Origin: an uncultured Desulfurococcaceae archaeon
GTDB lineage: Archaea > Thermoproteota > Thermoprotei_A > Sulfolobales > NBVN01
Assembly (NCBI GenBank): GCA_964641155.1
Contig: CAZXJO010000002.1
Coordinates: forward strand, 70,096 to 134,095
Length of the DNA stretch: 64,000 bases
Reading direction: 5' to 3'
This document shows positions 13,523-46,961 of this stretch, in pieces (positions within the stretch are counted from its first letter, which is position 1; the number at the start of each line of letters is the position of its first letter). Under the pieces are notes generated by a model, which was given only the letters and a program-made list of their open reading frames with translations, was not told the DNA's origin and did no database searches. A program made the translations under genes and the position numbers.

Positions 13523-13603
<81 letters not shown>

Positions 13604-17077: not shown

Positions 17078-17923
17078 TCAACCGCCTAATAACCTACTAA
17101 TGTTATTGTTTAATAACTTTAGGTAACCGTCTATGAAAGCCCTAACAGCCTCATAGGAGCCCTTATCCCTCAACACTTCCACGAAGCTCCTACACACATC
17201 CACTTCCGGCCTGCCGAGCATTTTAACGTGTATTTCTGAGCTGCATTCTCTTAACAAATCTTCTTCAGCCTTCTTAGCTTCTAAGGGTTGGTTAGTCCAA
17301 TACGCTAGTTCAGCCACGTAGGCGAGCACCACCAAACTAAGTAACGGCCTTAAATCCTCAAACGTTAGTAACGTCTTAACGAATTCGTCAATAGATCGCA
17401 CCATGTTGAAGGCCAACTCCTTAACACACCTCTTCACCCCTTGTACACTCCTCAACTCTGCATTGCGGCTTAGTTCGTCTACGTAATGTTTAATGTTTAT
17501 TCCATACGTGTTTAAGTTTTCAGAGACTATATACAGTTCTCCAATCAATTGAGGGGTTATAATCCACCTGCCGACGATGTCCTCATGGAACGACTTGACG
17601 ACGCTGACTAGCGCTTGAAACGCTCTCGCGGCATTAATCAGTAAGTCCTTAATAACGGCTGAGAACCACGCGTATCGAACCCTTAGTTCCACCACTCTAC
17701 CTATCTCTTTAACTAAGGGTGATGAAGGCCCCGACGTACTGATGAACACTCTTTTCGTGGGTGTTTCAACGACTAATGTGTCATCTTCTTGATACACCCT
17801 CATAACATCTGAAACTCTTACCTCATACATTACGTCCCTATGAACGCTCTGAATTAGGATTTTACCGCTAACTAAGGATACGTCACATATGAATACTTCA
17901 CCCTCTAATGTACATCTGGTCAA
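17078..17923 (-). CDS. Hypothetical protein, third gene of the orphan operon: N-terminal PH/GRAM-like beta domain plus a helical domain
   Basis: 281 aa. The N-terminal ~95 aa (VSLVSGKILIQSVHRDVMYEVRVSDVMRVYQEDDTLVVETPTKRVFIS) have the strand pattern of bacterial PH-like domains. The rest is helical. No catalytic motif was recognised. It lies 11 nt downstream of the membrane protein gene. Confidence 0.6.
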   Translation of the reverse strand: MTRCTLEGEVFICDVSLVSGKILIQSVHRDVMYEVRVSDVMRVYQEDDTLVVETPTKRVFISTSGPSSPLVKEIGRVVELRVRYAWFSAVIKDLLINAARAFQALVSVVKSFHEDIVGRWIITPQLIGELYIVSENLNTYGINIKHYVDELSRNAELRSVQGVKRCVKELAFNMVRSIDEFVKTLLTFEDLRPLLSLVVLAYVAELAYWTNQPLEAKKAEEDLLRECSSEIHVKMLGRPEVDVCRSFVEVLRDKGSYEAVRAFIDGYLKLLNNNISRLLGG

Positions 17924-17934
17924 CGCCGTAGTCC

Positions 17935-20085
17935 CTACCCCTTAACCTTCTTTAAGACGTTTCCCTCCACCACAACATCATTCCTAATAGCCGTGTAAAC
18001 GTTGATGAACCATTTCAAGGCTTCCTTAGACAGCGGGATATCGTCCAGCGACAAGCTACCGTACTTCAACCTCTCATCGAAGTATTTAATGAAGAGTTGT
18101 AAGTAATTGGTATAACGTAGAGTTTTATCGAAGATTTCCAGGTAAAATAAATGCTCGTATAGTAGCCCCAACCACTTAGAAGACATCCAATCAATTAAGT
18201 CGTAGCAGGTGGGGAGATTTCGGAAGACCGTAAAATCTTTCGAAGATTTACTCATCACTGAAGGAGACACAGGTGTTAGAATCCTATAATCCAACCCCAG
18301 GTTATCTGCAACACTAATGAGGAGTTTTTCCTTGATGTTCAGCTCCTGTAATATTAAATCTGACAGCCTGATTAGGCAGTCTCCTAAAGCACTGCATCTA
18401 ATCTTCATATCATTAAGGTGCTTAAACGTTAGGATTCCTCCTTGCGGGAATGACCCTAAGTTTGTGGAGACCTCCTTAAGCAGCTCAAGTAACTCCCCCC
18501 GCACCTTATGCGTGAACTCCTCGATGACCCCACCTATGGAGTCCTTCAAGCGTGTTGCCCTCTCAACAATGGCAGAGGCTTTTGAGGTGACCTCATGGCT
18601 GCTCAAGAGGTTTTCTAGGACATCAGCATACGCTTTGGTGATGTCTAAGAGTAGTATATTTTCAGGGCATTGCATCGAGGTATCAACGCTTACCCTAACT
18701 GCTAATACCTCAGCAATTATCCGAGCTAGGTCGTTCAGGGTCTTGATATAAGACTCACATATTATTTTCAATGCCTTCCTCAATCCCACACCAACACTTG
18801 GGATGTCCTCAAAACGTTTGATGCTTTCCAATAATTTAACCAAATCATCTAGCTCCGCGTTCCTAAGACCGCTGATGCTAACCCATTTATCGTACGATTC
18901 CCTCACCTCCTTAACGATTGATTGATATGCATCGACCACCTGATGCCTAGTATCAACTAACTCTTTGCCCACCTTTTCCAGTAGGGCTGCATAGCCCTTA
19001 ACCCAGTTTAATGAGGGAGTCGGCTTCCCCACCCGCTCTTCAACATGATCCAGCTCCCTTTCCAATTCTCTCAGCTTGTCTTGAAATGCGCTGACCTTAA
19101 CCCCGAGAAGGGGGTCCACAATTAACTCGTTTAAGACTGAACTGCAAGCGTTTAATTCGTCCCTAAGGCTGTGGATGTTTCTAACTAAGTCATCACTGAG
19201 ACGTACCAGTTCTCTATTAAGATTCCATGAACAACTCAACATGGAAACAAAAAATGACGGGATTGACGCGTAAATTACTGATAGGTACGATTCCACAGGT
19301 TTGGCCACCGTGACCAGGCCCGTAATTACGTGAATGAGGGTTAACACAGCTAACGACATACCGTACGAAACAGAGGAGTAAGGCAGGAGGTGTCTGGGCT
19401 CGGTCATCTCAGGTAGATAATGCCTTAAGAACTTATGGTACACCGTATTGAAGATCACGTAGACGAGGCAAGCTATGAGCATGGTGATAAGTAAGTTCAG
19501 CTCACCCCCACTAACGTACAAGACGTTAGATAGTTTCATGTGAGGAACTGCGGATACATCAGATACTGACACTGGGATAAGCAGGTACGGGAGGTACACT
19601 AGTAGGGCAATGCCTGCAAATCTCAGACCATCAGTAGCAGTTTTAAGGAGTAAGATGTGAGGGGTCATCAAAGCGAACGGCAGGAGTCCTCCGAAATCTA
19701 AGAACGCTGAAGGTAAAGAAATTATTATCAGCACTTGAGCTAAGGAAATTCCGAGATCGCTCCGAAGGGCTAAGATACTTGCGGCCAGGCCGGAAACTAT
19801 GGGTGTTATGAACATCATGTAAGGTCCTAGTGCCGACTTGAAGACGAGGTTGGGAGCTGTCCCGTATGCATATATGAAAACTAACGCCAAGAACAAATAC
19901 GTCGCAGCTAACCCTTTTCTGATGTCTTTGTAGATTATGACTGAGGTGATGGCCAACGACGCCGCGTAGAGTGCGGAGAACGTGACAAAGGTAATAACGC
20001 CCTTACTAAGCCCTACTAGATACGTGAGTATGTTGAATGAGATGATGCATAAAACCAGTGCTGATAGTTCGTAGTACCTCATCAC
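17935..20085 (-). CDS. Hypothetical polytopic membrane protein (about 9-10 TM in the first ~290 aa) with a roughly 430 aa cytoplasmic helical/coiled-coil-like domain
   Basis: 716 aa. The N-terminus is hydrophobic (LVLCIISFNILTYLVGL ... IPSFFVSMLSCSW). The C-terminus is rich in heptad-like helices (LRDELNACSSVLNELI, LRELERELDHVEERV). No Walker, HExxH, DEAD or Cys-cluster motifs were found. Its start overlaps the upstream stop (ATGA at 20082-20085). Confidence 0.65.
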   Translation of the reverse strand: MMRYYELSALVLCIISFNILTYLVGLSKGVITFVTFSALYAASLAITSVIIYKDIRKGLAATYLFLALVFIYAYGTAPNLVFKSALGPYMMFITPIVSGLAASILALRSDLGISLAQVLIIISLPSAFLDFGGLLPFALMTPHILLLKTATDGLRFAGIALLVYLPYLLIPVSVSDVSAVPHMKLSNVLYVSGGELNLLITMLIACLVYVIFNTVYHKFLRHYLPEMTEPRHLLPYSSVSYGMSLAVLTLIHVITGLVTVAKPVESYLSVIYASIPSFFVSMLSCSWNLNRELVRLSDDLVRNIHSLRDELNACSSVLNELIVDPLLGVKVSAFQDKLRELERELDHVEERVGKPTPSLNWVKGYAALLEKVGKELVDTRHQVVDAYQSIVKEVRESYDKWVSISGLRNAELDDLVKLLESIKRFEDIPSVGVGLRKALKIICESYIKTLNDLARIIAEVLAVRVSVDTSMQCPENILLLDITKAYADVLENLLSSHEVTSKASAIVERATRLKDSIGGVIEEFTHKVRGELLELLKEVSTNLGSFPQGGILTFKHLNDMKIRCSALGDCLIRLSDLILQELNIKEKLLISVADNLGLDYRILTPVSPSVMSKSSKDFTVFRNLPTCYDLIDWMSSKWLGLLYEHLFYLEIFDKTLRYTNYLQLFIKYFDERLKYGSLSLDDIPLSKEALKWFINVYTAIRNDVVVEGNVLKKVKG

Positions 20086-21038
20086 TGACCCGTAACCTTA
20101 GCTAAGTCTTCCAAGGAGATCTGCAATTTCCGCTCCCTAACTAGCTCGTAAGATTTAGCTATAAACTTTCGTAATGTGAGAATTAAGTTGTTGCAGGGTT
20201 CAACGGTTAATACCGTAAGTAGGTCGCTCTTGGACGGAATGCTAATCAGAATTAATTCCCTCACATTTAACCTGTTTTTAAGGTAGTTGATCTGGGAGCT
20301 CAAATCCTTTAAGTTATGAGCGACTGCTATTAAGGCGGAGTCTATGGAGTTTGTATAGTCATGCATTAAATGGTGCGAGAACATGACGATGTTTGCAAGA
20401 CTACCGAAGACCTCCAAATCGGCTTTTGGGAAGCAAGTGATGATGCCTAGCCTCCCGTGCTCGCTCAGGTACTTCTCAATATCGGAAGAAATCTTAAGTA
20501 TGTTAACCACGCATGCTGAAAACGTTTCCTCACCACCAACAAGTTTTAAGTAACTTATCAAGTCTTCGTGAATTAGAAGCATTAAGTCGGCTATCCCCTC
20601 CTTCGTTGCGAGTGCTAGGTATGTCAATAGGTTAATAAAGTCATTATCGGATGGATTGGAAGGCACCCTCAACACAGTAATGGTCCTCGAGCTAACGTTG
20701 ACTTTCTTCACCTCCCTCATCAGTTCATATGAGAGCAGTAGGTTGTGAGGGTTTGCGTCTATAAATGCGAGTGTCTCTAAGACATCACTGGTCACACATA
20801 ACCTCATGTTCGAAATGGGGTCGTAAGACTGGTCTCCAAGCCTTGAGAACCAGTAACCACCTTCAAGGGCAGGCTGGGTTGCGGAGCTGTTGGCGGGTAG
20901 GTATACCGTGCTATCACTCCCTAGTAGCGACCTTAAAACGTTAAGGTCGTCCCTAGCTGATGCAAGCACTAACCTGGAGTAGGTTTTGAAGTCCACAGAG
21001 TCTATGAGCCTGATCAGCCTATCTAGGTAATAGCTCAT
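20082..21038 (-). CDS. Hypothetical soluble protein, first gene of the orphan operon
   Basis: 318 aa with mixed alpha/beta character, no Walker A and no other recognisable motif. It is translationally coupled to the downstream membrane protein gene. Confidence 0.6.
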   Translation of the reverse strand: MSYYLDRLIRLIDSVDFKTYSRLVLASARDDLNVLRSLLGSDSTVYLPANSSATQPALEGGYWFSRLGDQSYDPISNMRLCVTSDVLETLAFIDANPHNLLLSYELMREVKKVNVSSRTITVLRVPSNPSDNDFINLLTYLALATKEGIADLMLLIHEDLISYLKLVGGEETFSACVVNILKISSDIEKYLSEHGRLGIITCFPKADLEVFGSLANIVMFSHHLMHDYTNSIDSALIAVAHNLKDLSSQINYLKNRLNVRELILISIPSKSDLLTVLTVEPCNNLILTLRKFIAKSYELVRERKLQISLEDLAKVTGQ

Positions 21039-21209
21039 AAGTTAGCACCATGGTTTCATATGATTTTGATGTACTGGCGGTCATGACTAGCACCTAGGTA
21101 TATAAGTATCAAGTCCCCAACAATTTTGTCTAGGTGACTAATTAACTTTATTAGTTGCCTTATATACCATAAGCTGATGATGAGGGAGGTGATCTTAGAT
21201 AGGTGAAGA

Positions 21210-21899
21210 GTGGTGTTCTCGTCTGACCTCCTAAACCAACTCACCAAACTCTATGGCAAACTTTCTGAGGGTCCGTGCGTGCGAGCTGCTGAGGTCCCCG
21301 AATCCATACTAGAGTTTCTGATGGGTAATGACTTAGTTTATGTTGGGCTGAGCGACGAGCTGTGCATTAAGTCCGCGGTTAAGTTAGCGTTGGAACTCCT
21401 TAAATTAGGCTCAGATGCTGAGACGGTATCCAAACCACTTAACTGGAAGGACTTCGAAGAACTAATTAACGAATACCTGGGCCTAAGAGGCTACTACGTA
21501 ATTAGAGGACTGCGCTTCGGCCGTAGGAGATATGAGGTAGACGTCATCGGTATTGACGAAGTCTCCAAGGTTGCATTTATCATAGATTGCAAGCACTGGA
21601 GCCCGGGGTACAGCAAGAGAGGGAGGTTGGCCCACATAGCTAAAGAACACAGATCTAAAGTTGAGGTGCTTTCCACTGAATGCGATTCCGTCATCGGCAA
21701 GTGCTGGGCACTGAGTAGGGCTAAGGTCTTAATCCCGGTCATCGTGACGTTGACTGACGTCGTGCGTGGTTATGTAGGTGGTTCGTTTATAGTGCCCGTA
21801 CTCCGGTTCAACGATTTCATATGTAACGCACAGTTCTACGTAGATTCCATGGTGAGCAGGTCTGACGTAATAATAAACAAATGCTACCGTGAAGCTTAA
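21210..21899 (+). CDS. PD-(D/E)XK nuclease superfamily protein, Mrr-cat-like restriction endonuclease fold
   Basis: LNWKDFEELINEYLGLRGYYVIRGLRF..RRYEVDVIGIDEVSKVAFIIDCKHW matches the Mrr-type layout: an FE..L helix, the D of the first beta strand, then (D/E)xK, here ID-C-K. GTG start. It is divergent from the orphan operon across a 171-nt AT-rich spacer. Confidence 0.65.
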   Translation: MVFSSDLLNQLTKLYGKLSEGPCVRAAEVPESILEFLMGNDLVYVGLSDELCIKSAVKLALELLKLGSDAETVSKPLNWKDFEELINEYLGLRGYYVIRGLRFGRRRYEVDVIGIDEVSKVAFIIDCKHWSPGYSKRGRLAHIAKEHRSKVEVLSTECDSVIGKCWALSRAKVLIPVIVTLTDVVRGYVGGSFIVPVLRFNDFICNAQFYVDSMVSRSDVIINKCYREA

Positions 21900-21945
21900 A
21901 CCATGACAGCATTCGATTGGACCACCTAAAAATGATGCAGGATCG

Positions 21946-22185
21946 TCAGGTCCTCACGGTGGTCGTTGACGTGTTAGGTCCCGTAGATACGGGTTCACTA
22001 ATTGTGGTGTTCTCGCTGACCGGAATCTGTGGACTCGCAATCTGTGTTTGGGTGTTGGCTGTCATCTCAGTTCCAACTTTCTTCTCCTCTAACGTACCGG
22101 CAATTGCAAGGGCTACCGTTATGATCATCAAAACCGCAAGCAGTAATATGCCTCCAACAGGTTTTTGTTGCCGTGTTTTAGACAT
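21946..22185 (-). CDS. Small N-terminally anchored Thr/Ser-rich protein (hypothetical)
   Basis: 79 aa. MSKTRQQKPVGGILLLAVLMIITVALAIAG (charged N-terminus plus TM) is followed by a T/S/P/Q-rich tail. It competes with an overlapping plus-strand ORF (21917-22198) that looks less protein-like. Confidence 0.35.
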   Translation of the reverse strand: MSKTRQQKPVGGILLLAVLMIITVALAIAGTLEEKKVGTEMTANTQTQIASPQIPVSENTTISEPVSTGPNTSTTTVRT

Positions 22186-22304
22186 ACCACGTACCTAGAG
22201 ACTAGTGGTTCTTACCTTAATAACTATAATCCTTAATAACACTATAATGATTTAACAAGTTTAACCATAACCTATAATTGTGACATAGTAATTAGATTGG
22301 AGGT

Positions 22305-23486
22305 GTGCATGACGTGGTCTTAGAAACGTTGCTCATCGTGTTGGTCGTTGAGTTACTGCTCTATTTAATGTTCACCTATTGGAAAGGTTTCTCAGCAAAG
22401 CTTAAAGATAAGGGTTTACACATAAGCGCGTTCACAGTGATGTTGGACATAAAGAAGGCTATGGAACCTAAAAGCTGGAGATCCAGCGCGGTCAGCAAGG
22501 CAATAGGTTTTATTGGAGTTATTAACGTAGCAGTGCTCATAGTGTTGTTCTACTGGATGGTGATTCCATCAATTTTTGAATTCGTGAAGGCCTTAATGGG
22601 GACCCAGAGGGTTGTTTCCGCACCATTCGTACCCGTAGTTCCAGGTATTACCATTAAGGGGAGCAACATAATCTGCTTCATGATAGGTGTAGGTGTTGCT
22701 GTGATCACGCATGAATTACTTCATGCCATAACCGCGTTGAGGGAGGGGATTAAGGTGGAATCATGGGGTTTGGGGGTGTTCTTGATATTTCCCTTCGCTT
22801 ATGTTAGGATAGATGACGAAGGATTTAATAAATCATCGCTTAGCAGTAAGGTTAAGGTGTTATCGGCCGGGGTTCTGTCGAACACCGCATTCGCCCTGAT
22901 GCTATTAATCGCCTTAAATGCCGGGGCTTCAGCGCTCGAGCAGTATTCGGTGGTAGTCATATATGAGTTGGATAGGAGCTTAGGTCCTGAAGCACCTGCC
23001 TTGATTGCTGGTATACCGACCCCTTCAGTAATTAACAGTATTAATGGGACCGAGATCAAAAGCTTAGCGGATTTGAGGAATTACCTCCTATCAATCAGTG
23101 ATAAGTCAACCTCACTGATATTGAATATTTCCAGGTTTAATGCCTTAGTCGATGATGTATTCGTTAGGGGGTTGCAGGAGCCTGAGCTAATCGTGGTTAA
23201 CAAACCTTCAAATATGTCTAGGTTGGGGATATTGGTTATTGAAGCTCTCTCACCCTCCACTCCTGCATATCTGTACTACTTGAACAGGATCTTCTACTGG
23301 ACATACGTGGTTAACATCAGTTTAGCAATATTCAACGCCGCACCCCTTGTAATAACTGATGGGGGGAGGATACTGCAAGAGGTGTTCAGGAAATATGGTA
23401 TGGTTAAGGTAGGCAATATCCTTCAATGGGGCACGGTAGCGGTGACGGCTGTCCTCCTGGTGGCTGGGTTTATACGCTTTATATGA
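22305..23486 (+). CDS. Site-2 protease (M50 family) intramembrane metalloprotease with a PDZ-like insert
   Basis: HExxH is present as THELLHA within a TM helix. The second metal-ligand motif is NAAPLVITDGG. The PDZ-like segment is SVINSINGTEIKSLADLRNYL. Confidence 0.85.
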   Translation: MHDVVLETLLIVLVVELLLYLMFTYWKGFSAKLKDKGLHISAFTVMLDIKKAMEPKSWRSSAVSKAIGFIGVINVAVLIVLFYWMVIPSIFEFVKALMGTQRVVSAPFVPVVPGITIKGSNIICFMIGVGVAVITHELLHAITALREGIKVESWGLGVFLIFPFAYVRIDDEGFNKSSLSSKVKVLSAGVLSNTAFALMLLIALNAGASALEQYSVVVIYELDRSLGPEAPALIAGIPTPSVINSINGTEIKSLADLRNYLLSISDKSTSLILNISRFNALVDDVFVRGLQEPELIVVNKPSNMSRLGILVIEALSPSTPAYLYYLNRIFYWTYVVNISLAIFNAAPLVITDGGRILQEVFRKYGMVKVGNILQWGTVAVTAVLLVAGFIRFI

Positions 23487-26462: not shown

Positions 26463-27746
26463 ATGCCCGGCATTAAGCCTAAAGTCTACGTAATGCCCAT
26501 AGGTTCGACCGCATCACCTGATGTATCAAGCGATTATGAAGGTATGTTAAACTCGCTTAAGAAACTGGATGCGGAACTCGTCTTCGGCTCACCGTTAAAC
26601 GATGAGGTCAGCATCCTCCACAGGGTCGATGAGGTTAAGAAGTTAGATCTCGACGCCGCGGTGGTTCTATCACTTCATGGATTTACAGGGCATTTGCAGG
26701 CATTGTTCGTAGAGGCCTTAGGGTTACCGGCGGTTATTTGGACGTTACCTGTTAGGTATTCCCTGCCCACGGCAGCGAGCGCGGTTGGTTACCTTAGGGA
26801 GAGAGGGTTTAAGGTGAGGCTAGTTCACGGCCCACCCACAGATGCAGGAGTTATTAGAAGTATTGAGCAGTTCGTTAAGGTCGCTTCAACGGTTAGTAGA
26901 TTGGCTAAGATTAGGATAGGTGTCATAGGCGGCATTATACCCCCTATGGTTGCGTCCCATTACGATAGAACAATACTTAAGAGCAGGTTCGGAGTGGAGG
27001 TTGTCCACATACCTCTAGGCGATGTTATGAGGAGCTACAACTCAATCACCGATGAAGAAATAAGCGACAAATTCAAGGAATTAAGTTCCAAGTTCTCGGT
27101 CGAAGCCCCTGAAGATGACGTTAGGAAGGCGTTAAAACTGTACTTAGCTATTAAGAAGCTGCAGAAAACGCTGAAGCTAGATGCTGTAGCCCTAGAGTGT
27201 TATACCGAACTATTCCAGATGTTCAACGTTAATCCATGCATAGGGTATGTCGACGATGAAATCATAGGGTGCGAGGGTGAGATATTGAACGTAGTAGGAT
27301 TACTGATAGCTAAGTGGTTGTCCGGTAAGGAGGCCCTTATCTCCGATCCCTTCTCCGTCAGCAATGACGGCGTGCTAACGTTCATGCATTGCGCAGCTCC
27401 CGCATCCGTAGCGGATTCACCGTCTAAGGTTCACGTGGTGCTGAGCGAGCCGCCATCGATAATTAAAACTAGGATCCCTGTAGTCCACTGCAGGCCTGAA
27501 ATACCTTTAACCGAAGTGACGATATTCAGGATATACGGTGGGTTGATCGATAAGATCCACATCACGCGTGGTAACGTGGTCAGCTACGATATAGGTAAGG
27601 CGTTGCAGATAAATGTTAAGATAGATAACCCGTCGGGGTTCGTGAAGGAGGTCGCAGGGAATCATTACGTGATAGCTTTCGGTAACATAAGTGAGGAAGT
27701 GAAGTTAATTAGCGAGTGGTTAGGGATTAAGTACATAGAAACTTAA
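26463..27746 (+). CDS. L-fucose/L-arabinose isomerase-family-like protein (COG2407-like)
   Basis: The central IRIGVIGG segment, followed by AVALECYTELF...CIGYVDD.EIIGCEGEILNVVGLLIAKWLSGKEALISDPF...FMHCAAP, mirrors the C-W...C..../CE-D/HCG layout I recall for FucI-like proteins. Confidence 0.5.
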   Translation: MPGIKPKVYVMPIGSTASPDVSSDYEGMLNSLKKLDAELVFGSPLNDEVSILHRVDEVKKLDLDAAVVLSLHGFTGHLQALFVEALGLPAVIWTLPVRYSLPTAASAVGYLRERGFKVRLVHGPPTDAGVIRSIEQFVKVASTVSRLAKIRIGVIGGIIPPMVASHYDRTILKSRFGVEVVHIPLGDVMRSYNSITDEEISDKFKELSSKFSVEAPEDDVRKALKLYLAIKKLQKTLKLDAVALECYTELFQMFNVNPCIGYVDDEIIGCEGEILNVVGLLIAKWLSGKEALISDPFSVSNDGVLTFMHCAAPASVADSPSKVHVVLSEPPSIIKTRIPVVHCRPEIPLTEVTIFRIYGGLIDKIHITRGNVVSYDIGKALQINVKIDNPSGFVKEVAGNHYVIAFGNISEEVKLISEWLGIKYIET

Positions 27747-27758
27747 GGTGATTAAGTC

Positions 27759-30044
27759 TCATGAGCTAACCCTGCTGATCTCCCCAACGTTCTCAACTTT
27801 TATGATCTTATCTGCTATGTTCATTACACTTTCGTCGTGTGTCACCACTATTACCTGCCTTAATGACTTGCTTAGCTCCTTGATGATTTCAAACACCTGC
27901 TTCCTCCTCTCCTCGTCCAAGTAGACCGTAGGTTCATCAAGTATTAACGTTGTGGGGGCCCTACCCATAATTAGTTCAGCGAGTGCTAATCGTAACGCAA
28001 TCGAAATACCAACCCTCTCACCACCGCTTGCATTGCCTATCGGTAACTCACCGCCTAAGACCTTCACACGTATTTGGAAGTCGTCGCCGATTTCGATCGG
28101 CCTTAACCCAAGCTTAGTTAATATCCTATTAGCCCTCCTCTCCAACTCATCCCTCGCCAGCCTAGTCAGTTCCCTGGCTATCAAGCCGTTCTTACCTAGG
28201 TACCTCAAGCAGAATTCGTGAATCACGCTATACGCTTTGATTTGGGCTTCAATCTCCTTAATCCTTTTCTCGATTTCCTTTATCTCAGCATCTAAGACAT
28301 TCATCCTACCATCAACTTCCTTCAGCAACGCTTCTAACGCCTTCTTATTGCCATCAACCTCAAGTAACTTCTTGCTTATGCTTTCTGACTCGGAATTAAG
28401 TTCCCTACTTACCTCGGCCAATCTCTTTCTTGCGGAGTCTAAGTCCTTTAAATCTCGAGGCACGCCTACATTAGGAACTAGCTTAGCAAATATCTGAGCC
28501 AACCTGTCTTGAATATATGCGGCGTCCAAACCCGCGATATCTGAGGGCTGCTCTCCCTTCAAGTTGTTTAGGAATTCTAACTCACCTCTATAGCTGACTA
28601 ACTTGTTTTTAAGTGTGCTAAGGGACTCCACGCACTCGTTAAGTGATGGGGGACTCATGAAACTTTCAGCTAAGCCACTACATAGCTGGAATGCTTTATT
28701 ATTTAACTGGTTCAACTTCTCCGCAGTTTTCTGAAGAGATTTTTCTACAACTTCGGCTTTACTTATCAACTTACCCAATTCTTCGGAAGCGGTTTGAGCG
28801 ACAGCGATTTTCATCTTGCTCGCCGTATGCTCGTTACTTAACTCCTTGATTCTTTCATTCAGCTTGACGAGTTCTTGGGTTAGATGGCTCTTTATGACTG
28901 CTGGGTCGCTTATTAACGAACCACATATCGGGCATTCCCTCCTACTCTCGAGCTTTTCAACATAAACTGAGTACAGTTCTTTGAGCGCTTTAGCGTGGTT
29001 GATTGAACCTGCAAGTTCCTCACTCCTCGCTCTAAGCTGAGCTAGTAAGGTGCTTAACGATTCATAGCTGTCGACATTAACCCCTAGCTTACTTGAGGTG
29101 CCCTGCAGTAATGCCGTGATCCTACTCCTAATGGATGCTAGTTCACCAACTAAGTTCTCATGCTCCCTACGAGTTTGTAAGTAATCGTTGACATCCCATC
29201 CGTCCAGGATGGCGAGCTTAGATACTAAGTTCTCTAACTCCTTAACCCTCCGAACGATGATTAAGGGCTTCAGCTTGTCGAGCAGTTCTAAGCCCTCATT
29301 GGACAACCTTGCCTTCTCAGCTATGGTGTCGTACTTCTTCTTTAAATCCTCAATGACCTTCTCAGCTTCTAATATCTTACTCATCAACATGTTTTTCCTG
29401 GACTTAAGCTCTGACAACTCATTCTTCTTGCTGTTCAGTAGTACTTTCTCGCTTTCCAACCTACCTTCCAACCTATCCCTCTTGCTGGTGTACTTCTTAA
29501 CCACCTCTAAGGACTTCTCCAAGTAGCTGAGGCCTAGAAGTGAGAGGATCCACTCCCTCCTCTCGGAGTCGCTCACATCCACTATCTTAGTTAGCTCGTC
29601 TTGGAGTGATATCACCGTACTCCTCACAATACTCCTTAAATCCTTAGCAGTAACGGCTGTCAGACCTAAAATTCTACCGAGTTCGTTGACGACGTTCGAC
29701 ACACCAACACTCTTAACCCTCCTACCCTCCCTATCTAAGAGGTATAGGGCGGCTTGTGCCGGTGAATCAATCCATATCTCCCTGAAGACGGAGTACTTAA
29801 CCCCCCCAACGTCTAGTAAAACTTCGATTTCTCCCTTCCTCTTACCTCTCATCACTAAGAACTCCTTCTTACGTCCCCTGATGTCTATTGATGCGTCAGT
29901 GAATAACGCGGTGTAAATGGAATCTATAATGGATGATTTACCGGCGCCGTTCGGGCCCACTATAGCCACTATTCCATCCGGAAATGACACTTCGGAACTC
30001 TCATGGGATAATATGTTGGTGAGTCTTACGTGCCTGATAATCAC
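27759..30044 (-). CDS. rad50: Rad50 DNA double-strand-break repair ATPase
   Basis: Walker A is GPNGAGKSS, with long coiled coils and a zinc hook (CPICG). The signature is SGGERVGISIALRLAL and Walker B is LILDEPTVYLD. It overlaps the mre11 stop by 4 nt. Confidence 0.95.
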   Translation of the reverse strand: MIIRHVRLTNILSHESSEVSFPDGIVAIVGPNGAGKSSIIDSIYTALFTDASIDIRGRKKEFLVMRGKRKGEIEVLLDVGGVKYSVFREIWIDSPAQAALYLLDREGRRVKSVGVSNVVNELGRILGLTAVTAKDLRSIVRSTVISLQDELTKIVDVSDSERREWILSLLGLSYLEKSLEVVKKYTSKRDRLEGRLESEKVLLNSKKNELSELKSRKNMLMSKILEAEKVIEDLKKKYDTIAEKARLSNEGLELLDKLKPLIIVRRVKELENLVSKLAILDGWDVNDYLQTRREHENLVGELASIRSRITALLQGTSSKLGVNVDSYESLSTLLAQLRARSEELAGSINHAKALKELYSVYVEKLESRRECPICGSLISDPAVIKSHLTQELVKLNERIKELSNEHTASKMKIAVAQTASEELGKLISKAEVVEKSLQKTAEKLNQLNNKAFQLCSGLAESFMSPPSLNECVESLSTLKNKLVSYRGELEFLNNLKGEQPSDIAGLDAAYIQDRLAQIFAKLVPNVGVPRDLKDLDSARKRLAEVSRELNSESESISKKLLEVDGNKKALEALLKEVDGRMNVLDAEIKEIEKRIKEIEAQIKAYSVIHEFCLRYLGKNGLIARELTRLARDELERRANRILTKLGLRPIEIGDDFQIRVKVLGGELPIGNASGGERVGISIALRLALAELIMGRAPTTLILDEPTVYLDEERRKQVFEIIKELSKSLRQVIVVTHDESVMNIADKIIKVENVGEISRVSS

Positions 30045-31204
30045 TTAGCCCTCACCAACTTCTCCAGCCTACTAATGAGTTCTTGGTCGTTTGCTAGGGC
30101 GGTTATTAGGGTCTCAACGTATCCCTCATCATCGCAGCCTTTTATGATGTTTAAAACGTAGTCGGCTATTTTAGAGTCCTTTAATAAGTTATGGACTACT
30201 GTATCGAGAGTTGGTGCCGCGGTGGGTTCCTCGTAGTGGGGTTCCTCAAAATCTTCAGAGACTCCTGGGGTTTCCAATCTGTATGTAATTATCTTACCGC
30301 TATCCCTCAAATAACTTAAGTGTTCGATCATCGCCTTGGGGTTCGAGCTCAGCACGTCTTTCCCCATCACCTTAGCGTAGAGAATGGGGGGCTTAGCGAA
30401 CTCGTCGTAATTTACCTTACTCAAAACCTTGAGTAATTCATTGTACGCGCTCGCGGTGACCACCAACCATCTCCTAAACTTGCTTAATTTAACCCAATGC
30501 ACTACGGCATCTGTGGTGCTTAAGTCAATTAGGGCTACGAATCTTTCATCACCGCTTTCAAGGTAATCCAATGCCTCCGTGGACCCCGGATAAACTACCG
30601 GTGTCCCACCGTACTCAGTCTTATACCTGAGGTGGTAGTCACCCAAGGCAACGTAATTGTAGTCCCTACTCCCCAGTTCCGCTAATGAGAGATGGGCTCC
30701 CGGGATGTTTAACTCCTTAAGTAGGAGGTGAGCCATTAAAACCCTCCGAGCCGTCTCCGGTTTCCGGACCCCCCTAATTTGCACCTGCATGGTCTGCGGA
30801 TCCGCGTATGGTATGGCGGTGATGCCTAGCTCGTTGCTGCGGAGCTTAAACACATGTGTTGCCGGCTCAGCAACGGCCAACACTTTAGCCAGACCTACCT
30901 CTTCCAGAACCCTTATAGGCGATAGAGCAGATGTCTTAGGCTGGTCATGCTGTCCGGCAATGACTAAAAACCCTATGCCGTTATCCCTTAACTTCTTCAA
31001 GGACTTAAACGCGTATAAGTATGTTTGGGGATTAGGTCGGGGGTCGTCGAAGAGGTCCCCGCAATGCAGTACGGCGTCCACCCTTTCCTTAACCGCTATC
31101 TCAATAACTTCATCGAAGACTTCGTAGAAGTCTAATTCCCTCTCCCTCAGCTTGCCGGGCTTGCTTGAACCTAAATGTGTGTCAGATACGTGGAGTAACT
31201 GCAA
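30041..31204 (-). CDS. mre11: Mre11 nuclease
   Basis: Phosphoesterase motifs LLHVSDTHLG, HCGDLFD, IAGQHD, and GDYH. Confidence 0.95.
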   Translation of the reverse strand: MQLLHVSDTHLGSSKPGKLRERELDFYEVFDEVIEIAVKERVDAVLHCGDLFDDPRPNPQTYLYAFKSLKKLRDNGIGFLVIAGQHDQPKTSALSPIRVLEEVGLAKVLAVAEPATHVFKLRSNELGITAIPYADPQTMQVQIRGVRKPETARRVLMAHLLLKELNIPGAHLSLAELGSRDYNYVALGDYHLRYKTEYGGTPVVYPGSTEALDYLESGDERFVALIDLSTTDAVVHWVKLSKFRRWLVVTASAYNELLKVLSKVNYDEFAKPPILYAKVMGKDVLSSNPKAMIEHLSYLRDSGKIITYRLETPGVSEDFEEPHYEEPTAAPTLDTVVHNLLKDSKIADYVLNIIKGCDDEGYVETLITALANDQELISRLEKLVRAK

Positions 31205-31210
31205 CGCGGG

Positions 31211-32824
31211 TTACGCCTCCCATTCCTTAATCAATGACCTCCTCTCCAACGCCTTGCCTATGGATTCCCTACCTTCCCTCCAGATTTTCACGATTTCCGG
31301 GGTTACACCAGCTCTCTTACCTAGGTGTCTATCAACCCTGATATATGCGGGGTATTTACCAATCCATTCCCCCATCAATATTGCGTGTCCCGGCGGGAGT
31401 GTTGGCAAGATCTCAACATACTCATCACCTAATATGTCGGTTAGCTCCATAACGGTTGATTTATCATCCTTCTGAACCAGCTTTAGGAATGCGTAACTCT
31501 GAACCTGGGACACTACGTTGACATCCAACGCCCTAGGTCTTTGGCTAACTACCGCCAACATACCTCCGAACTTCCTCCCCTCCCTGATGAACCTCTGGAG
31601 GACGCCCTTAGATTTAGTATTGACCCCACTCCCAAGGAATATGTGTGCCTCCTCTACAACCAGTAACGTAGGTATGGGGGCGCGTTCGGTACCCCTACCC
31701 CCTTCTTTGAGGTACCATAGAAGGTCCTCCGCAACTACCTTAAGCATGAAGTCCTTGTCATCGTCCGTGAACGTGGACACGTCAATTACCACGATCTTGC
31801 CATTGCCTACCACTTCGCTGACTTTACGGGCCTCTAAGCTAATCCTATGCCACTCGAAGAAATCATCTATTTTATCCTCAACGTCCGCTAATGTTTTATC
31901 GCTGTCCCCGTCATGTCCGACATCCCTAAGGTACTTCTTGAGAACTTCCTTATACGCTTCCTTAGGGTCCTCCACTTGGGCGTTACTCGGACTCCCCTCT
32001 TTGAAGATCTCCTTCACCACTTGGGCGTAGGGCTTTCTATTCATCTTCACTCTCCCCAGTATTTCATCGTTCAACTTCCTTAACGCGTTCTTGAGAATCC
32101 TTCTTTGCCTGGTGGCAGCACCCTCAGGGATTATGAAGTTCGTGAGTAAGCTGACCGGTGTTTCCACGGGGTTTATCGCCGCATCGTAAACTACTACACT
32201 CACGTTGTCGGGGTCTTCACTAACTAGGTTGCCGTACTCGCCGTGGACATCAAATATGGCCACCGAACCACCTACTTGTGCAATCCTATCAGCTAGGACG
32301 GCTACGAGGTTACTCTTCCCCGAACCGGTTGTACCCGTAATTAGTAAGTGTTTAGCTAATGAGTTCACGTTAACACTTATTCTTAAGTTGTTGAAGCCGA
32401 CTAAGGAGCCTACTTCAACACCTGCACCGGGTTCGCAGTCGTAAATAGTCTTCAGGTGTTTAAGTTCTGCTAGGTATACAGGAGTCTCAGGCGGGGGTGG
32501 GTATTCAGGGTTGTCAGCCCGTCCCCTACTTATGTCGGCTATGATGACGGCCTTCATATAGCTCTCGCTCTTTAAGCTCCTTAGTAATGACGTTGTCTCG
32601 TACATGGGGAGGTTTGGGGTGGTTAGCACCGGCACTACTGACCTGTATAGGCAGGAACCTATGATTCCAACTACCTCCCTATCAACTTCCTCTCCGAAGC
32701 TTGACCTGTCCCTTGCCTTAAACTTGATGTAGATGTAGGTACCTGGAGGGATGGGGGTTAACGCTTTAATATCAACTTCGGTCGGTTTCGAAACCTCACC
32801 AACTATACCTATGGGTTGGCTCAT
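31211..32824 (-). CDS. herA: HerA hexameric DNA helicase/translocase
   Basis: Walker A is ITGTTGSGKSN and Walker B is LLVVEEAH. It has an N-terminal HAS-barrel-like region and lies between nurA and mre11. Confidence 0.9.
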   Translation of the reverse strand: MSQPIGIVGEVSKPTEVDIKALTPIPPGTYIYIKFKARDRSSFGEEVDREVVGIIGSCLYRSVVPVLTTPNLPMYETTSLLRSLKSESYMKAVIIADISRGRADNPEYPPPPETPVYLAELKHLKTIYDCEPGAGVEVGSLVGFNNLRISVNVNSLAKHLLITGTTGSGKSNLVAVLADRIAQVGGSVAIFDVHGEYGNLVSEDPDNVSVVVYDAAINPVETPVSLLTNFIIPEGAATRQRRILKNALRKLNDEILGRVKMNRKPYAQVVKEIFKEGSPSNAQVEDPKEAYKEVLKKYLRDVGHDGDSDKTLADVEDKIDDFFEWHRISLEARKVSEVVGNGKIVVIDVSTFTDDDKDFMLKVVAEDLLWYLKEGGRGTERAPIPTLLVVEEAHIFLGSGVNTKSKGVLQRFIREGRKFGGMLAVVSQRPRALDVNVVSQVQSYAFLKLVQKDDKSTVMELTDILGDEYVEILPTLPPGHAILMGEWIGKYPAYIRVDRHLGKRAGVTPEIVKIWREGRESIGKALERRSLIKEWEA

Positions 32825-33873
32825 AAGAACTCACCCAGCAGCTCACGTCCAGTCGGTATTGACGAAAGACCTAACTTGTAGAGAACTGTTCTAAACTCGG
32901 TGTTGCTCAGTCTACACATGTTGTGCGCTACCTTGAGGGGGTCCGGATAACCGGTGTGTGAGTATGGATATATCTCGCTCACCAACTCAACTAATTCATC
33001 AATACCTACCTTACCCGGGATGGAGATCTGATACGGCTGCGTTGACGGGTTGAAACTCACGTAGGTGATCGTCACAGGGGTAAATGGGCTTAGGTCCACG
33101 TCTAACTCGGTTAGAGGCCGTGGCAGGTTATCGCGTTCTACGTGAACTGGTTGAAGTATGTAGGGGGTTTTGGGCAACCTCCCTAACCTCCTTAAAGCGT
33201 TGATTAACATTAAGTCATTAGTAACTGCTTTAACCTTCTTCGGCACGTCATGAGACAGAAGTATGTCTGTGTAGTAGTTCCTCATAAGGGTTTTAGATAT
33301 GAATAAAGGTTTAGCAACACGCGTGACTTCTACGATGCCTGAGTAGATTTCATACCAGATATCTCTAATACTTTTATAGAAGGCTGGGTAAAAACCCTTA
33401 GGTATTTTCTTGTTGCTATAGCCCCACAAAAACGAAATGAGTGAGCCATCGAATAAGACGACTTCACCATCAGACAATAACTCAATCATTGACTTCACCT
33501 CCAAGGTTCGGGACGTAAGTTTTAAGATTCTCTCAACTAATTCGCTGGAGGCCCCACCACCGGGAGTCGGTGTGTGGTAACCTGCGAATGATTTAACGAT
33601 TAATCTACTGTCCGGCGGGTCTTTTAGGGAAGCCCTTACCGCCACTGACTGTATCGCATACACTGTGGCGAACGATAGCTTCTTAACTACCCTGCTAGAG
33701 TCGCTGGCAGCTATGTGGGACGGCTCACTCGCAGGCCGTGATTTGATGGGGTACGCGTTCACATCACGTAAAAAATTACGTAAGACATCTACCGAGCTAA
33801 CTTTACTGAGTAAGTCGCGCATAGCTGATGAGAGGTCGTTAATCAACAAATCATGTAGTGGAATCGTATACAC
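32821..33873 (-). CDS. nurA: NurA 5'-3' nuclease
   Basis: 350 aa with the N-terminal catalytic Asp context IAASDSSRV. GTG start, and a 4-nt overlap (ATGA) with herA. The operon context with herA-mre11-rad50 supports the call. Confidence 0.8.
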   Translation of the reverse strand: MYTIPLHDLLINDLSSAMRDLLSKVSSVDVLRNFLRDVNAYPIKSRPASEPSHIAASDSSRVVKKLSFATVYAIQSVAVRASLKDPPDSRLIVKSFAGYHTPTPGGGASSELVERILKLTSRTLEVKSMIELLSDGEVVLFDGSLISFLWGYSNKKIPKGFYPAFYKSIRDIWYEIYSGIVEVTRVAKPLFISKTLMRNYYTDILLSHDVPKKVKAVTNDLMLINALRRLGRLPKTPYILQPVHVERDNLPRPLTELDVDLSPFTPVTITYVSFNPSTQPYQISIPGKVGIDELVELVSEIYPYSHTGYPDPLKVAHNMCRLSNTEFRTVLYKLGLSSIPTGRELLGEFL

Positions 33874-38111: not shown

Positions 38112-39599
38112 TCAGATCTTAATCCCTAACTGCGACAGTATTGATGCTGAGAAGAAGAGCGCCGACAACACCATGAATATTAATAAGAACGCGTACTCCC
38201 AAGGCTTAGGCCTCAATTCCTCGGGTAGCTTAAATGTGAGGTACATAACCGCAGGTACTACGAATATGCCGACGAAGTTCGCCGCATTGGCTGCTATTAT
38301 AACTAGGATCAGCGGCTGCGTCTGGTAGAGGGCCCATATGGTGAAGGCCACGTATGTGGCAAGTATTGAGTAGTACAGCTTTCTGACATCGTTGCCGAAA
38401 GCTTTCCTCACCCTCTCTAAGCCCCATATCAGGTCGGTTAAGTTTCTCGGCACAGCATCCACGTAAGCACCTAGGGCGGAGCTGAATAACACCATAAAAC
38501 CTATTAAACATATTAGGTAATAACCCCAAGCACCGACTATGGCCGCAAATTCGTTGGCTATATGTGCTGCAACACCCCATGGCGGCAGGGTCTGTCCTCT
38601 GGGGAGCAGGGAAGCGGCTATCAGAGACGGTAGGTACATGCCTAAGAGGGCTCCGGGGAAGAATATTAGCCATTGGTCATAACTAAGTAGCTTCATCCAC
38701 GTCTTAAACCTCCTCACATTCTCATCATCTATCCTGAACACCTTACCTACGGGTGATAACATTACTTTCTTACCGCCTATCAGCGCCGGAATGTAACCGA
38801 CCACGGCCCCCATACCGTAGCCCTTGTCCCTGTACCAGCTCATGAATACGAAGTTGAGACCCGCAGCTAGTGCGGTATAGGCCCACCAAGCAGTTATTAA
38901 ACTCATATCAGCACCCGGGGGTATGTAGCCAAAATTGAACATGCCCCACAGAGCCTCGTAAACGACTTCGGCCTTCAAAGTAAGCGGTGCAACCACAAGC
39001 GCCAACGTGATGAGTATGAAGCCTGCGAAGAACCAGTTCACTATTTCTAAAGTCCTCTCAATCTTATACCCAAACAACACAGTAATCACGCATAAGGCTA
39101 TTATGACCATCGTTAAGTACCTGACTAACCAGGCATCATTAGCTGTGGGCAGTCTGCCAAGGATTAGCGACCCCAACGCCGTGGCTCCCGAGCCAGCTAT
39201 ACCTGCTAGGCCCCAGGCACCCCAACTAATGATCACTGCCGCTAAGAACACGCTCCAGAACTTAGACCCTGGAGGCACTCTGCTGAGGTATACTATGGGT
39301 GATTCACCGCAGTACATCGAAATCCTAACCAAGCTCACGTTATATACAGTCTGGAGGAACGATGACACTAAAACTATCCAGGCCATGCCAAGCCCGTAGC
39401 TGACGGCGGTCGCAGGACCTAATAACCATTCACCACCACCTATTGCGACACCAACAGAGATAATGCTGGGGCCTAGGACTTTAAAGACTATTTCCTTAGC
39501 ACCCAACCTGGATACTCCGAAGACCTCCTCGGGAGTGGGTAATCTATCGACGACTTCTGCCTCTTTAGTACCGAGTTTAGTATTGAACTCACGCGCCAA
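38112..39599 (-). CDS. Polytopic transporter, Nramp-related/APC-superfamily-like
   Basis: 495 aa with about 11-12 TM. The N-terminal GPSIISVGVAIGGGEWLLGPA resembles the Nramp-family first-helix motif region. The specific substrate cannot be called. Confidence 0.45.
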   Translation of the reverse strand: MAREFNTKLGTKEAEVVDRLPTPEEVFGVSRLGAKEIVFKVLGPSIISVGVAIGGGEWLLGPATAVSYGLGMAWIVLVSSFLQTVYNVSLVRISMYCGESPIVYLSRVPPGSKFWSVFLAAVIISWGAWGLAGIAGSGATALGSLILGRLPTANDAWLVRYLTMVIIALCVITVLFGYKIERTLEIVNWFFAGFILITLALVVAPLTLKAEVVYEALWGMFNFGYIPPGADMSLITAWWAYTALAAGLNFVFMSWYRDKGYGMGAVVGYIPALIGGKKVMLSPVGKVFRIDDENVRRFKTWMKLLSYDQWLIFFPGALLGMYLPSLIAASLLPRGQTLPPWGVAAHIANEFAAIVGAWGYYLICLIGFMVLFSSALGAYVDAVPRNLTDLIWGLERVRKAFGNDVRKLYYSILATYVAFTIWALYQTQPLILVIIAANAANFVGIFVVPAVMYLTFKLPEELRPKPWEYAFLLIFMVLSALFFSASILSQLGIKI

Positions 39600-45959: not shown

Positions 45960-46961
45960 ATGGAAGTGAGGTCTGAGTTACGCACACTTCAAAAGGTTGG
46001 AAGTTCCCTAGCTATTTACATACCCAAAGAATGGTGTGAATCTAATAAACTTACGAAGGGTTCAAAGGTTACTTTAAGGTACACCGATAATTTCCTCTGT
46101 ATCGACCTCGAAGAAGTAGGTAATAGGAAAAGCAAGGTTGTGACGTTCGACATTACCCCCTTACCTGAGGACGAGTTAAAGTACCTGATCGTGTCCCTTT
46201 ACGTCATAGGTTACCATCGGGTAAAACTCGTTTCGCATAAGAAGATAAGCCTACCCTTGAGGAGGTTCATACTTTCGGTACTGCGTTATACGCCTAAATA
46301 TAGCGTAGTTGAGGAAGGAGAGAACTACATGGTTATCGAGGAGATTGGAGGGGTTGAGGACATTCTAGAGGCATTGAAAAGAGAATTCAACTCTGTGACC
46401 ACAGTATTTAAGTACACGATAGAGGCGTTCGAGGGCGACCATAAAACATTGAGCGACTACTACGAATCGATAAATGAGCTTGACGATGAAGTCGATAAAG
46501 CCCAGGTCGAAGTGGAGAGAGCTGCGTATAAGCTGATCGAAAGACCCCTCACAAGTATGGGGAAGGTCAGATACATTATTTCAGCAGCCGTCATCTCAAC
46601 ACTTCTTGAAAGATTATCAGACCATCTGGTGTTGCTGGTGAAAGAGGTCTCCGATGGGTTCGCCAACACTCAGAAAATTCTGACCTATCTTCAGGAATTT
46701 AACAACGTTTATAAAACGGTCTTGAAAGTAGTAGAGAAAATCACTGAAAACGGATACGATGCGAGCAACATCCAAAACACTTTAAGCTCCTTAATCCAGA
46801 TCATTGAAAGGAAGCGAGCTGTCAGGGAGAGCATAAGCAAAGCGATTTATGGGAAAGGTTATGAAGTGATAACATATCACGTTATCAGGATCTACGGGAT
46901 CATTGCAGACATAGCTGAAGTATTAGTCAACTTATTGATGAGTATTTACTCACCCAGGTGA
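45960..46961 (+). CDS. AbrB/SpoVT-domain plus PhoU-like-domain regulator
   Basis: The N-terminal LQKVGSSLAIYIPKEWCESNKLTKGSKVTL is a swapped-hairpin AbrB motif. The C-terminal ~200 aa are helical repeats resembling PhoU. Confidence 0.6.
   Translation: MEVRSELRTLQKVGSSLAIYIPKEWCESNKLTKGSKVTLRYTDNFLCIDLEEVGNRKSKVVTFDITPLPEDELKYLIVSLYVIGYHRVKLVSHKKISLPLRRFILSVLRYTPKYSVVEEGENYMVIEEIGGVEDILEALKREFNSVTTVFKYTIEAFEGDHKTLSDYYESINELDDEVDKAQVEVERAAYKLIERPLTSMGKVRYIISAAVISTLLERLSDHLVLLVKEVSDGFANTQKILTYLQEFNNVYKTVLKVVEKITENGYDASNIQNTLSSLIQIIERKRAVRESISKAIYGKGYEVITYHVIRIYGIIADIAEVLVNLLMSIYSPR

Follow-up and report, generated by a model that had tools for sequence, protein, structure and literature searches.

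A three-gene operon around a polytopic membrane protein in uncultured archaea, and the Mrr-like nuclease beside it

The helical rods of EzrA, spectrin, plakin and PRC1 are the nearest described counterparts, in layout, of the principal protein of this report, the product of the second of three adjacent genes (the triad; genes 1, 2 and 3) in a 64,000-nucleotide stretch of DNA from an uncultured Desulfurococcaceae archaeon (contig CAZXJO010000002.1, positions 70,096 to 134,095; this whole stretch is the window, and all coordinates count from its first letter). Like these rods, the gene 2 protein has an N-terminal membrane anchor that is followed by long consecutive helical bundles. Unlike EzrA-type rods, its anchor comprises 9-10 transmembrane (TM) segments rather than one, its far end carries a winged-helix-like cap, it is accompanied by two dedicated partner genes, and there is no sequence similarity. 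The DUF2070 (PF09843) proteins resemble gene 2 in layout as well, having a multi-TM N-terminus and a soluble C-terminal part, and are unrelated to it: the suggestion that gene 2 is a divergent DUF2070 protein is rejected by an hhalign probability of 0.2% and by the lack of a PF09843 match in any member of the gene 2 family.

Two further described groups bear on the gene that faces the triad, which is transcribed divergently and encodes a PD-(D/E)XK (Mrr-like) protein of 229 aa (21210..21899, plus strand; not part of the triad). Mrr_cat and NERD nucleases share their invariant E...D...(D/E)xK signature with this protein; unlike them, it starts with an additional domain of ~75 aa, and its C-terminal half is strongly conserved (PVIVTLTD..RGY.GGSF.VP). 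Its context, a C/D-box small RNA (sRNA) gene before it and usually an M50 protease gene after it, is not a restriction-modification or defence setting. C/D-box sRNAs that overlap the 5' end of an open reading frame (ORF) constitute 'category 1' of Lui et al. 2018 (PMC6009581). The sRNA of the window is like these in lying on the sense strand and in having four boxes, guides of 12-13 nt and a length of 50-51 nt; unlike the curated archaeal C/D sRNAs, it reaches the gathering score of no Rfam family.

The first-pass annotation of the window had taken the triad for a coupled operon of proteins without a placeable family, and this description stands. What such an operon might do is best explained, tentatively and with something short of an even chance of being right, by a lineage-specific, chromosomal, non-enzymatic, membrane-anchored scaffold or tether of three subunits. 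A literature search for the triad operon found no description of it.

Three coupled genes and their products

The three genes and the divergent nuclease gene lie at the positions and have the lengths first assigned to them. In the list of ORFs, gene 1 (20082..21038, minus strand) encodes a soluble protein of 318 aa, probably of alpha/beta type. Gene 2 (17935..20085, minus strand), a membrane anchor joined to a rod, encodes 716 aa from a GTG start and 715 aa from an ATG at 20082. Gene 3 (17078..17923, minus strand) encodes 281 aa, an N-terminal beta-rich domain and then a helical domain. The 11-nt gap between genes 2 and 3 (17924-17934) and the 171-nt spacer between gene 1 and the nuclease gene (21039-21209; GC content 0.374) are likewise as first described. 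The 4-nt overlap of genes 1 and 2, which had been given as ATGA, is correctly placed at 20082-20085; the coding strand there reads GTGA. Since the ATG of gene 2 at 20082-20080 agrees with the N-termini of orthologues and with the 715-aa NCBI call, the true overlap is probably 1 nt (TGATG). In orthologues from the close relatives (L numbers, used below, denote metagenomic contigs that carry relatives of the triad, of the nuclease or of both, and that were compared with the window) the junctions range from 2-nt gaps to 14-nt overlaps. The invariant 1-2-3 order, with junctions that touch or overlap, implies that the three proteins would be co-translated in fixed proportions.

The TM domain of gene 2 (19222..20085, minus strand; aa 1-288) contains 9-10 TM helices with very short loops between them. 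Its tail (17938..19221, minus strand; aa 289-716) is a succession of helical bundles in an AlphaFold2 (AF2) model, and ends in the winged-helix-like cap (17938..18102, minus strand; aa 662-716), which has the secondary-structure order H-E-H-E-E. Hydropathy, a crude measure, assigns 9-12 TM segments to most of 15 family members and 6-7 to four of them; the segments are confined to the first 245-290 residues in all but one. The tail that follows is ~430-470 aa long and 25-33% charged across the members; that of the window is 27% charged and has zero N-glycosylation sequons. This charge, the lack of sequons in the window's tail and the absence of signal sequences from genes 1 and 3 are the reasons for placing the tail, probably, in the cytoplasm. 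The original picture of a polytopic membrane protein with ~9-10 TM segments and a helical tail of ~430 aa, probably cytoplasmic, is thus backed by hydropathy and by the model. The latter was built from a 5-sequence alignment: the tail is modelled with a predicted local distance difference test score (pLDDT) of 85-94 and the TM block with one below 50, the TM helices being seen as DSSP helices of the model also at that low score. In the model TM10 runs on into a long stalk helix, to which the helical bundles and then the cap are joined.

Conservation is distributed very unevenly along gene 2. Only P166, L369, C443, C473, Y668 and P684 are invariant family-wide, C443 and C473 making up a Cys pair in the tail. 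The TM domain is the least conserved part of the protein: P166 is invariant there, L24, R56 and P181 are nearly so, nothing else is conserved family-wide, and the analysis of invariant columns across the family finds no invariant charged residue. The cap is the family's most conserved module (with Y668 and P684), and is all that BLAST detects when gene 2 of the window is compared with that of the distant relative L014. A profile of the cap matches nothing in the PDB, DNA-binding proteins included, and its putative recognition helix is not notably basic. Foldseek finds generic helical rods only when the tail is compared with the PDB (best E 0.33, template-modelling score <=0.22); the best of these non-significant matches are PRC1, plakin spectrin repeats, vinculin and the MUN domain. 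Against viral structures (BFVD) gene 2 has no significant fold match, and none of the 15 members reaches a curated Pfam family; matches to ATG17_like, Zw10_N, Baculo_PEP_C and CorA are sub-threshold and were set aside as noise of the coiled-coil type.

Gene 1 has three family-wide invariants, W63, N136 and E280, in an alignment of the broadened family, and is best conserved in an N-terminal helix with the motif LDRLIRLIDSxD. Pfam gives no match in any of the 12 members scanned. The protein of the window has none in PADLOC, PHROGs or the PDB, and matches NCBIfam only at the level of noise (12.9 and 10.5 bits, the cutoffs being 40 and 732). The AF2 model of gene 1 is poor (pLDDT 46), with an N-terminal half that resembles a beta-alpha-beta layer. 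On that model, Foldseek against the PDB puts Gtr2, RagA, RagC and RagD on top (E 1.7e-3 to 4e-2, probability <=0.91). Rag/Gtr GTPases, which combine a Ras-like and a roadblock domain, are similar to gene 1 in length (~310 aa); the superpositions, made on a pLDDT-46 model, have a template-modelling score of ~0.25 and a root-mean-square deviation of 12-18 A, and pyridoxal kinases, MinD/FlhG and aminotransferases score about as well. A Rag/Gtr-type GTPase is expected to have a P-loop and an NKxD motif, whereas the P-loop GxxxxGK[ST] (G1) and NKxD (G4) are absent in all 12 members of the gene 1 family. The likeness to Rag/Gtr proteins, which comes from the model, is accordingly to be treated as a lead only.

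Gene 3 begins, in its alignment, with ~85 beta-patterned residues that contain an invariant Cys pair (C4/C13) and whose pattern would suit several short strands and then a helix, and continues as a helical domain; C4, C13, W120 and L151 are its only family-wide invariants. The first ~95 residues had been likened to a PH/GRAM-type beta sandwich. A PH-like family is not matched in Pfam by any of 11 members, and against the PDB the gene 3 profile finds a marginal match to the beta-meander of fatty-acid-binding protein (E 2.5e-3, per-domain 0.28), so that a PH/GRAM identity is left without profile support. Comparison of the gene 3 helical domain with the membrane-proximal part of the gene 2 tail by hhalign (E 8.5e-4, probability 24%) suggests that the two may be paralogous.

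Taken as a set, the triad of the window yields nothing beyond sub-threshold coiled-coil noise in Pfam, NCBIfam, PADLOC and PHROGs, and its sequence profiles match no solved structure; these profile and structure searches give no confident assignment to a known housekeeping family. The absence of catalytic motifs that had been reported for the three proteins also holds at the level of the families: Walker A is absent in all three, NKxD is absent in gene 1, and no enzyme-family profile is matched.

Distribution, inheritance and the separation from the nuclease

The triad families are small. A word-indexed search of 5.8 billion proteins retrieves 7, 5 and 8 clusters for genes 1, 2 and 3, the gene 1 clusters all coming from metagenome-assembled genomes (MAGs); the gene 2 profile, run exhaustively with HMMER against 1.84 billion representatives, finds 15. 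All of these relatives come from uncultured MAGs or metagenomes, so that the triad is confined to a few uncultured archaea of hot springs, and those with a name are labelled Sulfolobales archaeon or Desulfurococcales archaeon.

Four close relatives are syntenic with the window throughout, in the order ABC transporter, FMN reductase, M50, small ORF, nuclease, triad, HAD, MFS. The distant relatives of gene 2 (profile E 1e-6 to 1e-17, 14-18% identity) lie between quite different flanks (SIS, radical SAM, DMRL synthase, LplA). Their immediate neighbours are the same in kind: in six of these loci (L008, L009, L010, L013, L014 and L015) a gene of 303-345 aa precedes gene 2 and one of 283-294 aa follows it, tightly coupled. 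Of the two shorter loci that show the triad in part only (L011 and L012), L012 shows a gene of 349 aa ahead of gene 2 and a truncated one behind it. The downstream gene is homologous to gene 3 (E 1.6e-15, 1.7e-10), and the upstream gene is weakly homologous to gene 1 (E 1.9e-4, 0.09), whose LDRLIRLIDSxD-type N-terminal helix it carries in L008 and L009. The expectation that the three genes co-occur is thus borne out: order is kept, at lengths of 303-349, 710-731 and 283-294 aa, wherever a locus is long enough to hold all three. An architecture-based scan of all 95 loci for further distant triads, too divergent for HMM searches to detect, yielded the known ones only.

The ratio of nonsynonymous to synonymous substitution rates (dN/dS) of the triad in unsaturated pairs of loci is 0.15-0.25 (L001/L003), 0.21-0.25 (L017/L018) and 0.31-0.48 (L018/L019), compared with 0.12-0.29 for the flanking genes in the first two pairs. 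Values of 0.15-0.48 mark the triad ORFs as real genes under purifying selection, with mildly relaxed constraint. Between the same pairs of genomes the triad has diverged at 2-3 times the rate of its neighbours; from the window to L014 identity is 48% for HAD, 44% for the nuclease, 38% for M50 and ~15-20% for the triad. Positive selection as the cause of this fast divergence is rejected, dN/dS giving no gene-wide signal of it.

The surroundings of the triad had at first been read as those of a compact inserted module. Synteny of the whole neighbourhood in relatives, together with GC and GC at third codon positions (GC3) that match the flanks, argues against insertion, and there is no viral or phage link: a viral or mobile origin was considered and dropped, as the triad has no relative in IMG/VR, BFVD or PHROGs. 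By all these indications the triad appears to be chromosomal and vertically inherited.

That the nuclease would travel with the triad, as the first-pass annotation supposed, is contradicted by both sets of loci. Seen from the triad, the nuclease adjoins it in L001-L007 and L016-L020, that is, in the window's own clade only. At L014 a nuclease orthologue (44% identity, E 1e-62) lies ~7 kb from the triad, beside M50; at L013 M50 abuts gene 1 with no nuclease between, and the nuclease is absent from the neighbourhood; at L009, on a short contig, a SIS gene precedes the triad and the nuclease is absent from the visible part. Seen from the nuclease, for which the metagenome scan finds >442 relatives, neighbourhoods were counted in the best 80 loci. 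The triad adjoins the nuclease in 5 of these, all belonging to the window's clade. The next 17 (40-49% identity) have the nuclease and then M50, with no triad in the flanks seen (10 kb on both sides in five of them), and the remaining 58 have neither the M50 pairing nor the triad. Of the 22 closest metagenomic loci of the nuclease, 21 show M50 next to it, and the other one (L030) is too short for M50 to be seen. A nuclease that is distant or absent in far triad loci, and that pairs with M50 in 17 loci without the triad, argues that adjacency is not functional coupling and removes the ground for calling it the effector of the triad. The nuclease is then not the triad's functional partner but a member of a separate unit that consists of the sRNA, the nuclease, a small TM protein and M50; its place next to the triad in the window looks like residual gene order after the loss of ~6 kb of intervening genes.

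The scaffold reading and its alternatives

The case for a scaffold is made by what the families keep and what they do not. Polar residues conserved family-wide are almost lacking in every triad subunit, and no conserved acidic, basic or His set exists in the gene 2 TM domain or in gene 1. Identity falls to ~15% across the family; length, architecture and order are kept. So few invariants at such low identity, together with a kept architecture, favour structural proteins that are constrained at the level of their interfaces. In the proposed arrangement the rod of gene 2 would be held by its membrane anchor and reach into the cytoplasm, where the alpha/beta protein of gene 1 and the gene 3 protein, with its beta and helical domains, would dock on it; the conserved C-terminal cap would bind a partner, which may be a protein or a nucleic acid. 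Such a complex would act as scaffold or tether on the cytoplasmic side of the membrane, and would be neither an enzyme nor a transporter nor a defence system.

Several points count against the scaffold. There is no positive evidence for any specific function or partner of the triad, and the term 'scaffold' is largely argued from absent catalytic signatures. The TM domain of gene 2 (pLDDT below 50) and gene 1 (46) are poorly modelled. The topology of gene 2 is left unfixed by the positive-inside rule because its loops are so short. Finally, fast divergence would also be expected of a conflict-driven system, although gene-wide dN/dS gives no such sign.

A membrane-tethered sensor or regulator, in which the TM block senses a signal from the membrane or envelope, the winged helix binds DNA or is set free in order to bind it, and M50 might process gene 2, is unlikely. 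In its favour, the winged-helix-like unit is the most conserved module, and M50 does lie 1-8 kb from the triad in the window and in L013 and L014. However, site-2 protease substrates are usually single-pass and not 10-TM proteins, L009 and L010 show no M50 near the triad, and in loci that lack the triad M50 still accompanies the nuclease and the sRNA; the character of the putative recognition helix and the failure of the cap profile to match a DNA-binding protein in the PDB also speak against this explanation.

That the 10-TM domain moves a substrate, as a transporter or channel gated by the tail and the two soluble subunits, is similarly improbable. All members do have a compact bundle of 9-10 TM segments, and 2 of the 15 gene 2 members have sub-threshold matches to CorA (best E 2.6e-4). 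Yet Pfam and NCBIfam give no match to a transporter family, an ATPase or substrate-binding partner is absent, and the part of gene 2 that would do the transporting is its least conserved, with no invariant charged or polar TM residue (P166 alone is invariant; R56 and P181 are nearly so).

A lineage-specific complex for division, segregation or envelope work, which is a sub-case of the scaffold, is distinctly improbable. It takes support from resemblances of layout only, that of the anchored helical rod of gene 2 to division regulators such as bacterial EzrA and that of the beta domain and helices of gene 3 to CdvA (both of them leads only), and from the location of the locus in the core chromosome. 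Against it, Pfam families of Snf7, Vps4, CdvA or ESCRT are absent at E <=0.1 in any member, ESCRT-III/Cdv structures are absent among the Foldseek PDB matches of the gene 2 tail and gene 1, and there are no adjacent division genes. The proposal had been attached to a clade that lacks FtsZ and Cdv (Thermoproteales), an attachment that fails on the names of the relatives, which are labelled Sulfolobales or Desulfurococcales and not Thermoproteales. Sulfolobales and Desulfurococcales encode CdvABC. The scanned part of the window holds core genes, including Rad50-Mre11-HerA-NurA, and no Cdv genes, which is neutral for this reading.

A defence module that senses at the membrane and acts against viruses or by abortive infection, with the divergent Mrr-type nuclease for an effector, is very unlikely; a membrane-sensing defence module was one of the two readings in the first-pass annotation. 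In its favour, the nuclease gene lies next to the triad and points away from it in the window and its close relatives, the triad evolves at 2-3 times the rate of its neighbours, and long cytoplasmic tails are found on membrane proteins of some defence systems, for example ZorA of Zorya. But PADLOC yields 0 families at E <=1 for all four proteins; the flanks are metabolic or housekeeping genes, with no neighbouring defence or mobile-element genes; the locus is syntenic, vertically inherited and of native composition; relatives are absent from viral contigs and PHROGs; and dN/dS is well below 1, with no gene-wide positive selection. The proposed effector behaves no better, for it is ~7 kb off or absent from the neighbourhood in distant triad loci, it is better conserved than the triad, and its constant partners, whether the triad is present or absent, are M50 and the C/D-box sRNA. 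The nuclease-coupled defence reading is largely refuted by these observations.

It is highly improbable that the triad is a non-Asgard analogue of the eukaryotic membrane-tethering, Ragulator-type platforms, with gene 2 as polytopic anchor, spectrin-like rod and winged-helix cap, gene 1 as Rag/roadblock-like pseudo-GTPase and gene 3 as PH-like adaptor; it would then be a scaffold of a new kind that organises a process on the cytoplasmic side of the membrane.

The nuclease unit, the remainder of the window and what the triad means

The motifs quoted for the nuclease in the first-pass annotation are present in the 21210-21899 ORF, and E83, D111 and D126-x-K128 are invariant, also in the 44%-identical orthologue at L014. 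Its assignment to the Mrr-cat type stands as far as the catalytic E...D...(D/E)xK set is concerned and falls short of the Pfam cutoff: Mrr_cat (PF04471) scores 19.5 against 21 bits, and NERD 16.2 against 22.1, both matching over residues 77-134. The nuclease profile has no match in the PDB. Between the nuclease and M50 lies a gene for a conserved small membrane protein of 79 aa (21946..22185, minus strand) with a single TM segment and a Thr/Ser-rich tail, which is called as a gene of 72-79 aa in L001, L002 and L014. M50 itself, a site-2 protease (22305..23486, plus strand; Pfam E 7e-23) and, like the sRNA, no part of the triad, is 34-38% identical to the M50 proteins of L013 and L014. The unit formed by the sRNA, the nuclease, the small ORF and M50 (21177-23486 in the window; 64-2269 in L014; also in L021-L037) is kept at 40-49% nuclease identity, independently of the triad. 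At six loci (L052 2747-4507, L061 10338-12110, L074, L077, L078 and L085), which come from other environments, some of them apparently from soil metagenomes judging by contig names, a distant nuclease homologue is convergent with a DUF2070 (PF09843) gene (E 1e-122 to 1e-130).

The sRNA gene (21177..21226, plus strand), which had gone unannotated in the AT-rich spacer, is ~50 nt long and overlaps the start codon of the nuclease. All of its elements are on the plus strand: the C box AUGAUGA (21177-83); the 12-nt D' guide GGGAGGUGAUCU (21184-95), elsewhere given as GGGAGGUGAUC; the D' box UAGA (21196-99); the C' box GUGAAGA (21203-09); the 13-nt D guide (21210-22), of which the first base is that of the nuclease GTG start; and the D box CUGA (21223-26). 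In the aligned divergent intergenic regions, 8 loci share an unchanged block of ~40 nt; among these loci, the more divergent pairs are saturated at the synonymous sites (dS) of the flanking genes. An in-frame mini upstream ORF before the nuclease (MMREVILDR, 21177-21206) was tried as an explanation of this block and rejected because conservation reaches third codon positions and follows the box pattern; the C/D-box layout explains the block better. All four boxes are found in 26 distinct copies, 20 of which fit a strict box pattern with a length of 50-51 nt (63 in one). In a permissive Rfam scan, 11 of 14 matches are to archaeal C/D sRNA families, most of them full-length and all below gathering, the best being sR41 (20.7 bits, gathering 54) and sR1 (20.4 bits, gathering 45).

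In 27 of 27 orthologous loci, whether the triad is present or not, the sRNA lies ahead of the nuclease and on its strand; no copy accompanies any of 53 nuclease homologues that are more distant. It occurs in the window, L001-L007, L010, L014 and L016-L042. We presume its D' guide, which is invariant, to be complementary to the universal 3' terminus of 16S rRNA, GAUCACCUCC (the anti-Shine-Dalgarno sequence). A literature search for a C/D guide against the 16S 3' end found no such target described. The D guides of most lineages (L020-L042) are related to one another, reading xGGAUGCAACCGG, GGGAGUCAACCGU or GGGACGCAACCGU, and are probably rRNA guides. In the window's clade, the D guide positions (21210-21222) encode the nuclease N-terminus M-V-F-S-S, and it looks as if coding constraint shapes the guide there. 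A 12/13 match of the D guide to the small-ORF mRNA at 22004-22016 does not recur in other loci that carry this guide and was dismissed as chance. The sRNA links the 'Mrr-like nuclease' to an RNA-guide gene and M50, and not to the triad or to defence; the persistence of the unit suggests that the role of this nuclease may be related to RNA, the ribosome or the envelope rather than to restriction.

The rest of the window is that of a core chromosome of a thermophilic archaeon, as indicated by the archaeal DNA-end-resection operon at 27759-33873 (minus strand), which encodes Rad50 (761 aa), Mre11 (387 aa), HerA (537 aa) and NurA (350 aa). The triad had been called the only set of sizeable genes in the window without a family. 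It is not the sole such set, since two further ORFs also lack a confident family: one at 38112-39599 (minus strand, 495 aa) has no Pfam match, and one at 26463-27746 (plus strand, 427 aa) has a marginal match to AraA_central (25.5 bits), with no Pfam match recorded for its counterpart in L001. At 45960-46961 (plus strand) lies a gene for a 333-aa protein with an N-terminal MazE/AbrB-type domain and PhoU domains, a known architecture like that of archaeal phosphate regulators. A tRNA-Val (TAC) at 13523-13600 (minus strand) is the window's only tRNA and its only Rfam match at the gathering threshold.

The triad is not known from any cultured organism, which limits the practical impact. The unit of sRNA, nuclease, small membrane protein and M50 is a secondary finding, of a type already described; it occurs across a wider range of archaea and may be of more general interest. 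The triad itself comprises three co-inherited families that are unmatched in the libraries of sequences, solved structures and viral structures searched. That it appears chromosomal, vertically inherited and uncoupled from the nuclease guards against its being misfiled as a defence system, and it makes a clean three-protein target for structural and interaction work. Kept as a unit down to ~15% identity, it would point to a dedicated, as yet unnamed piece of cell biology in uncultured hyperthermophilic archaea.

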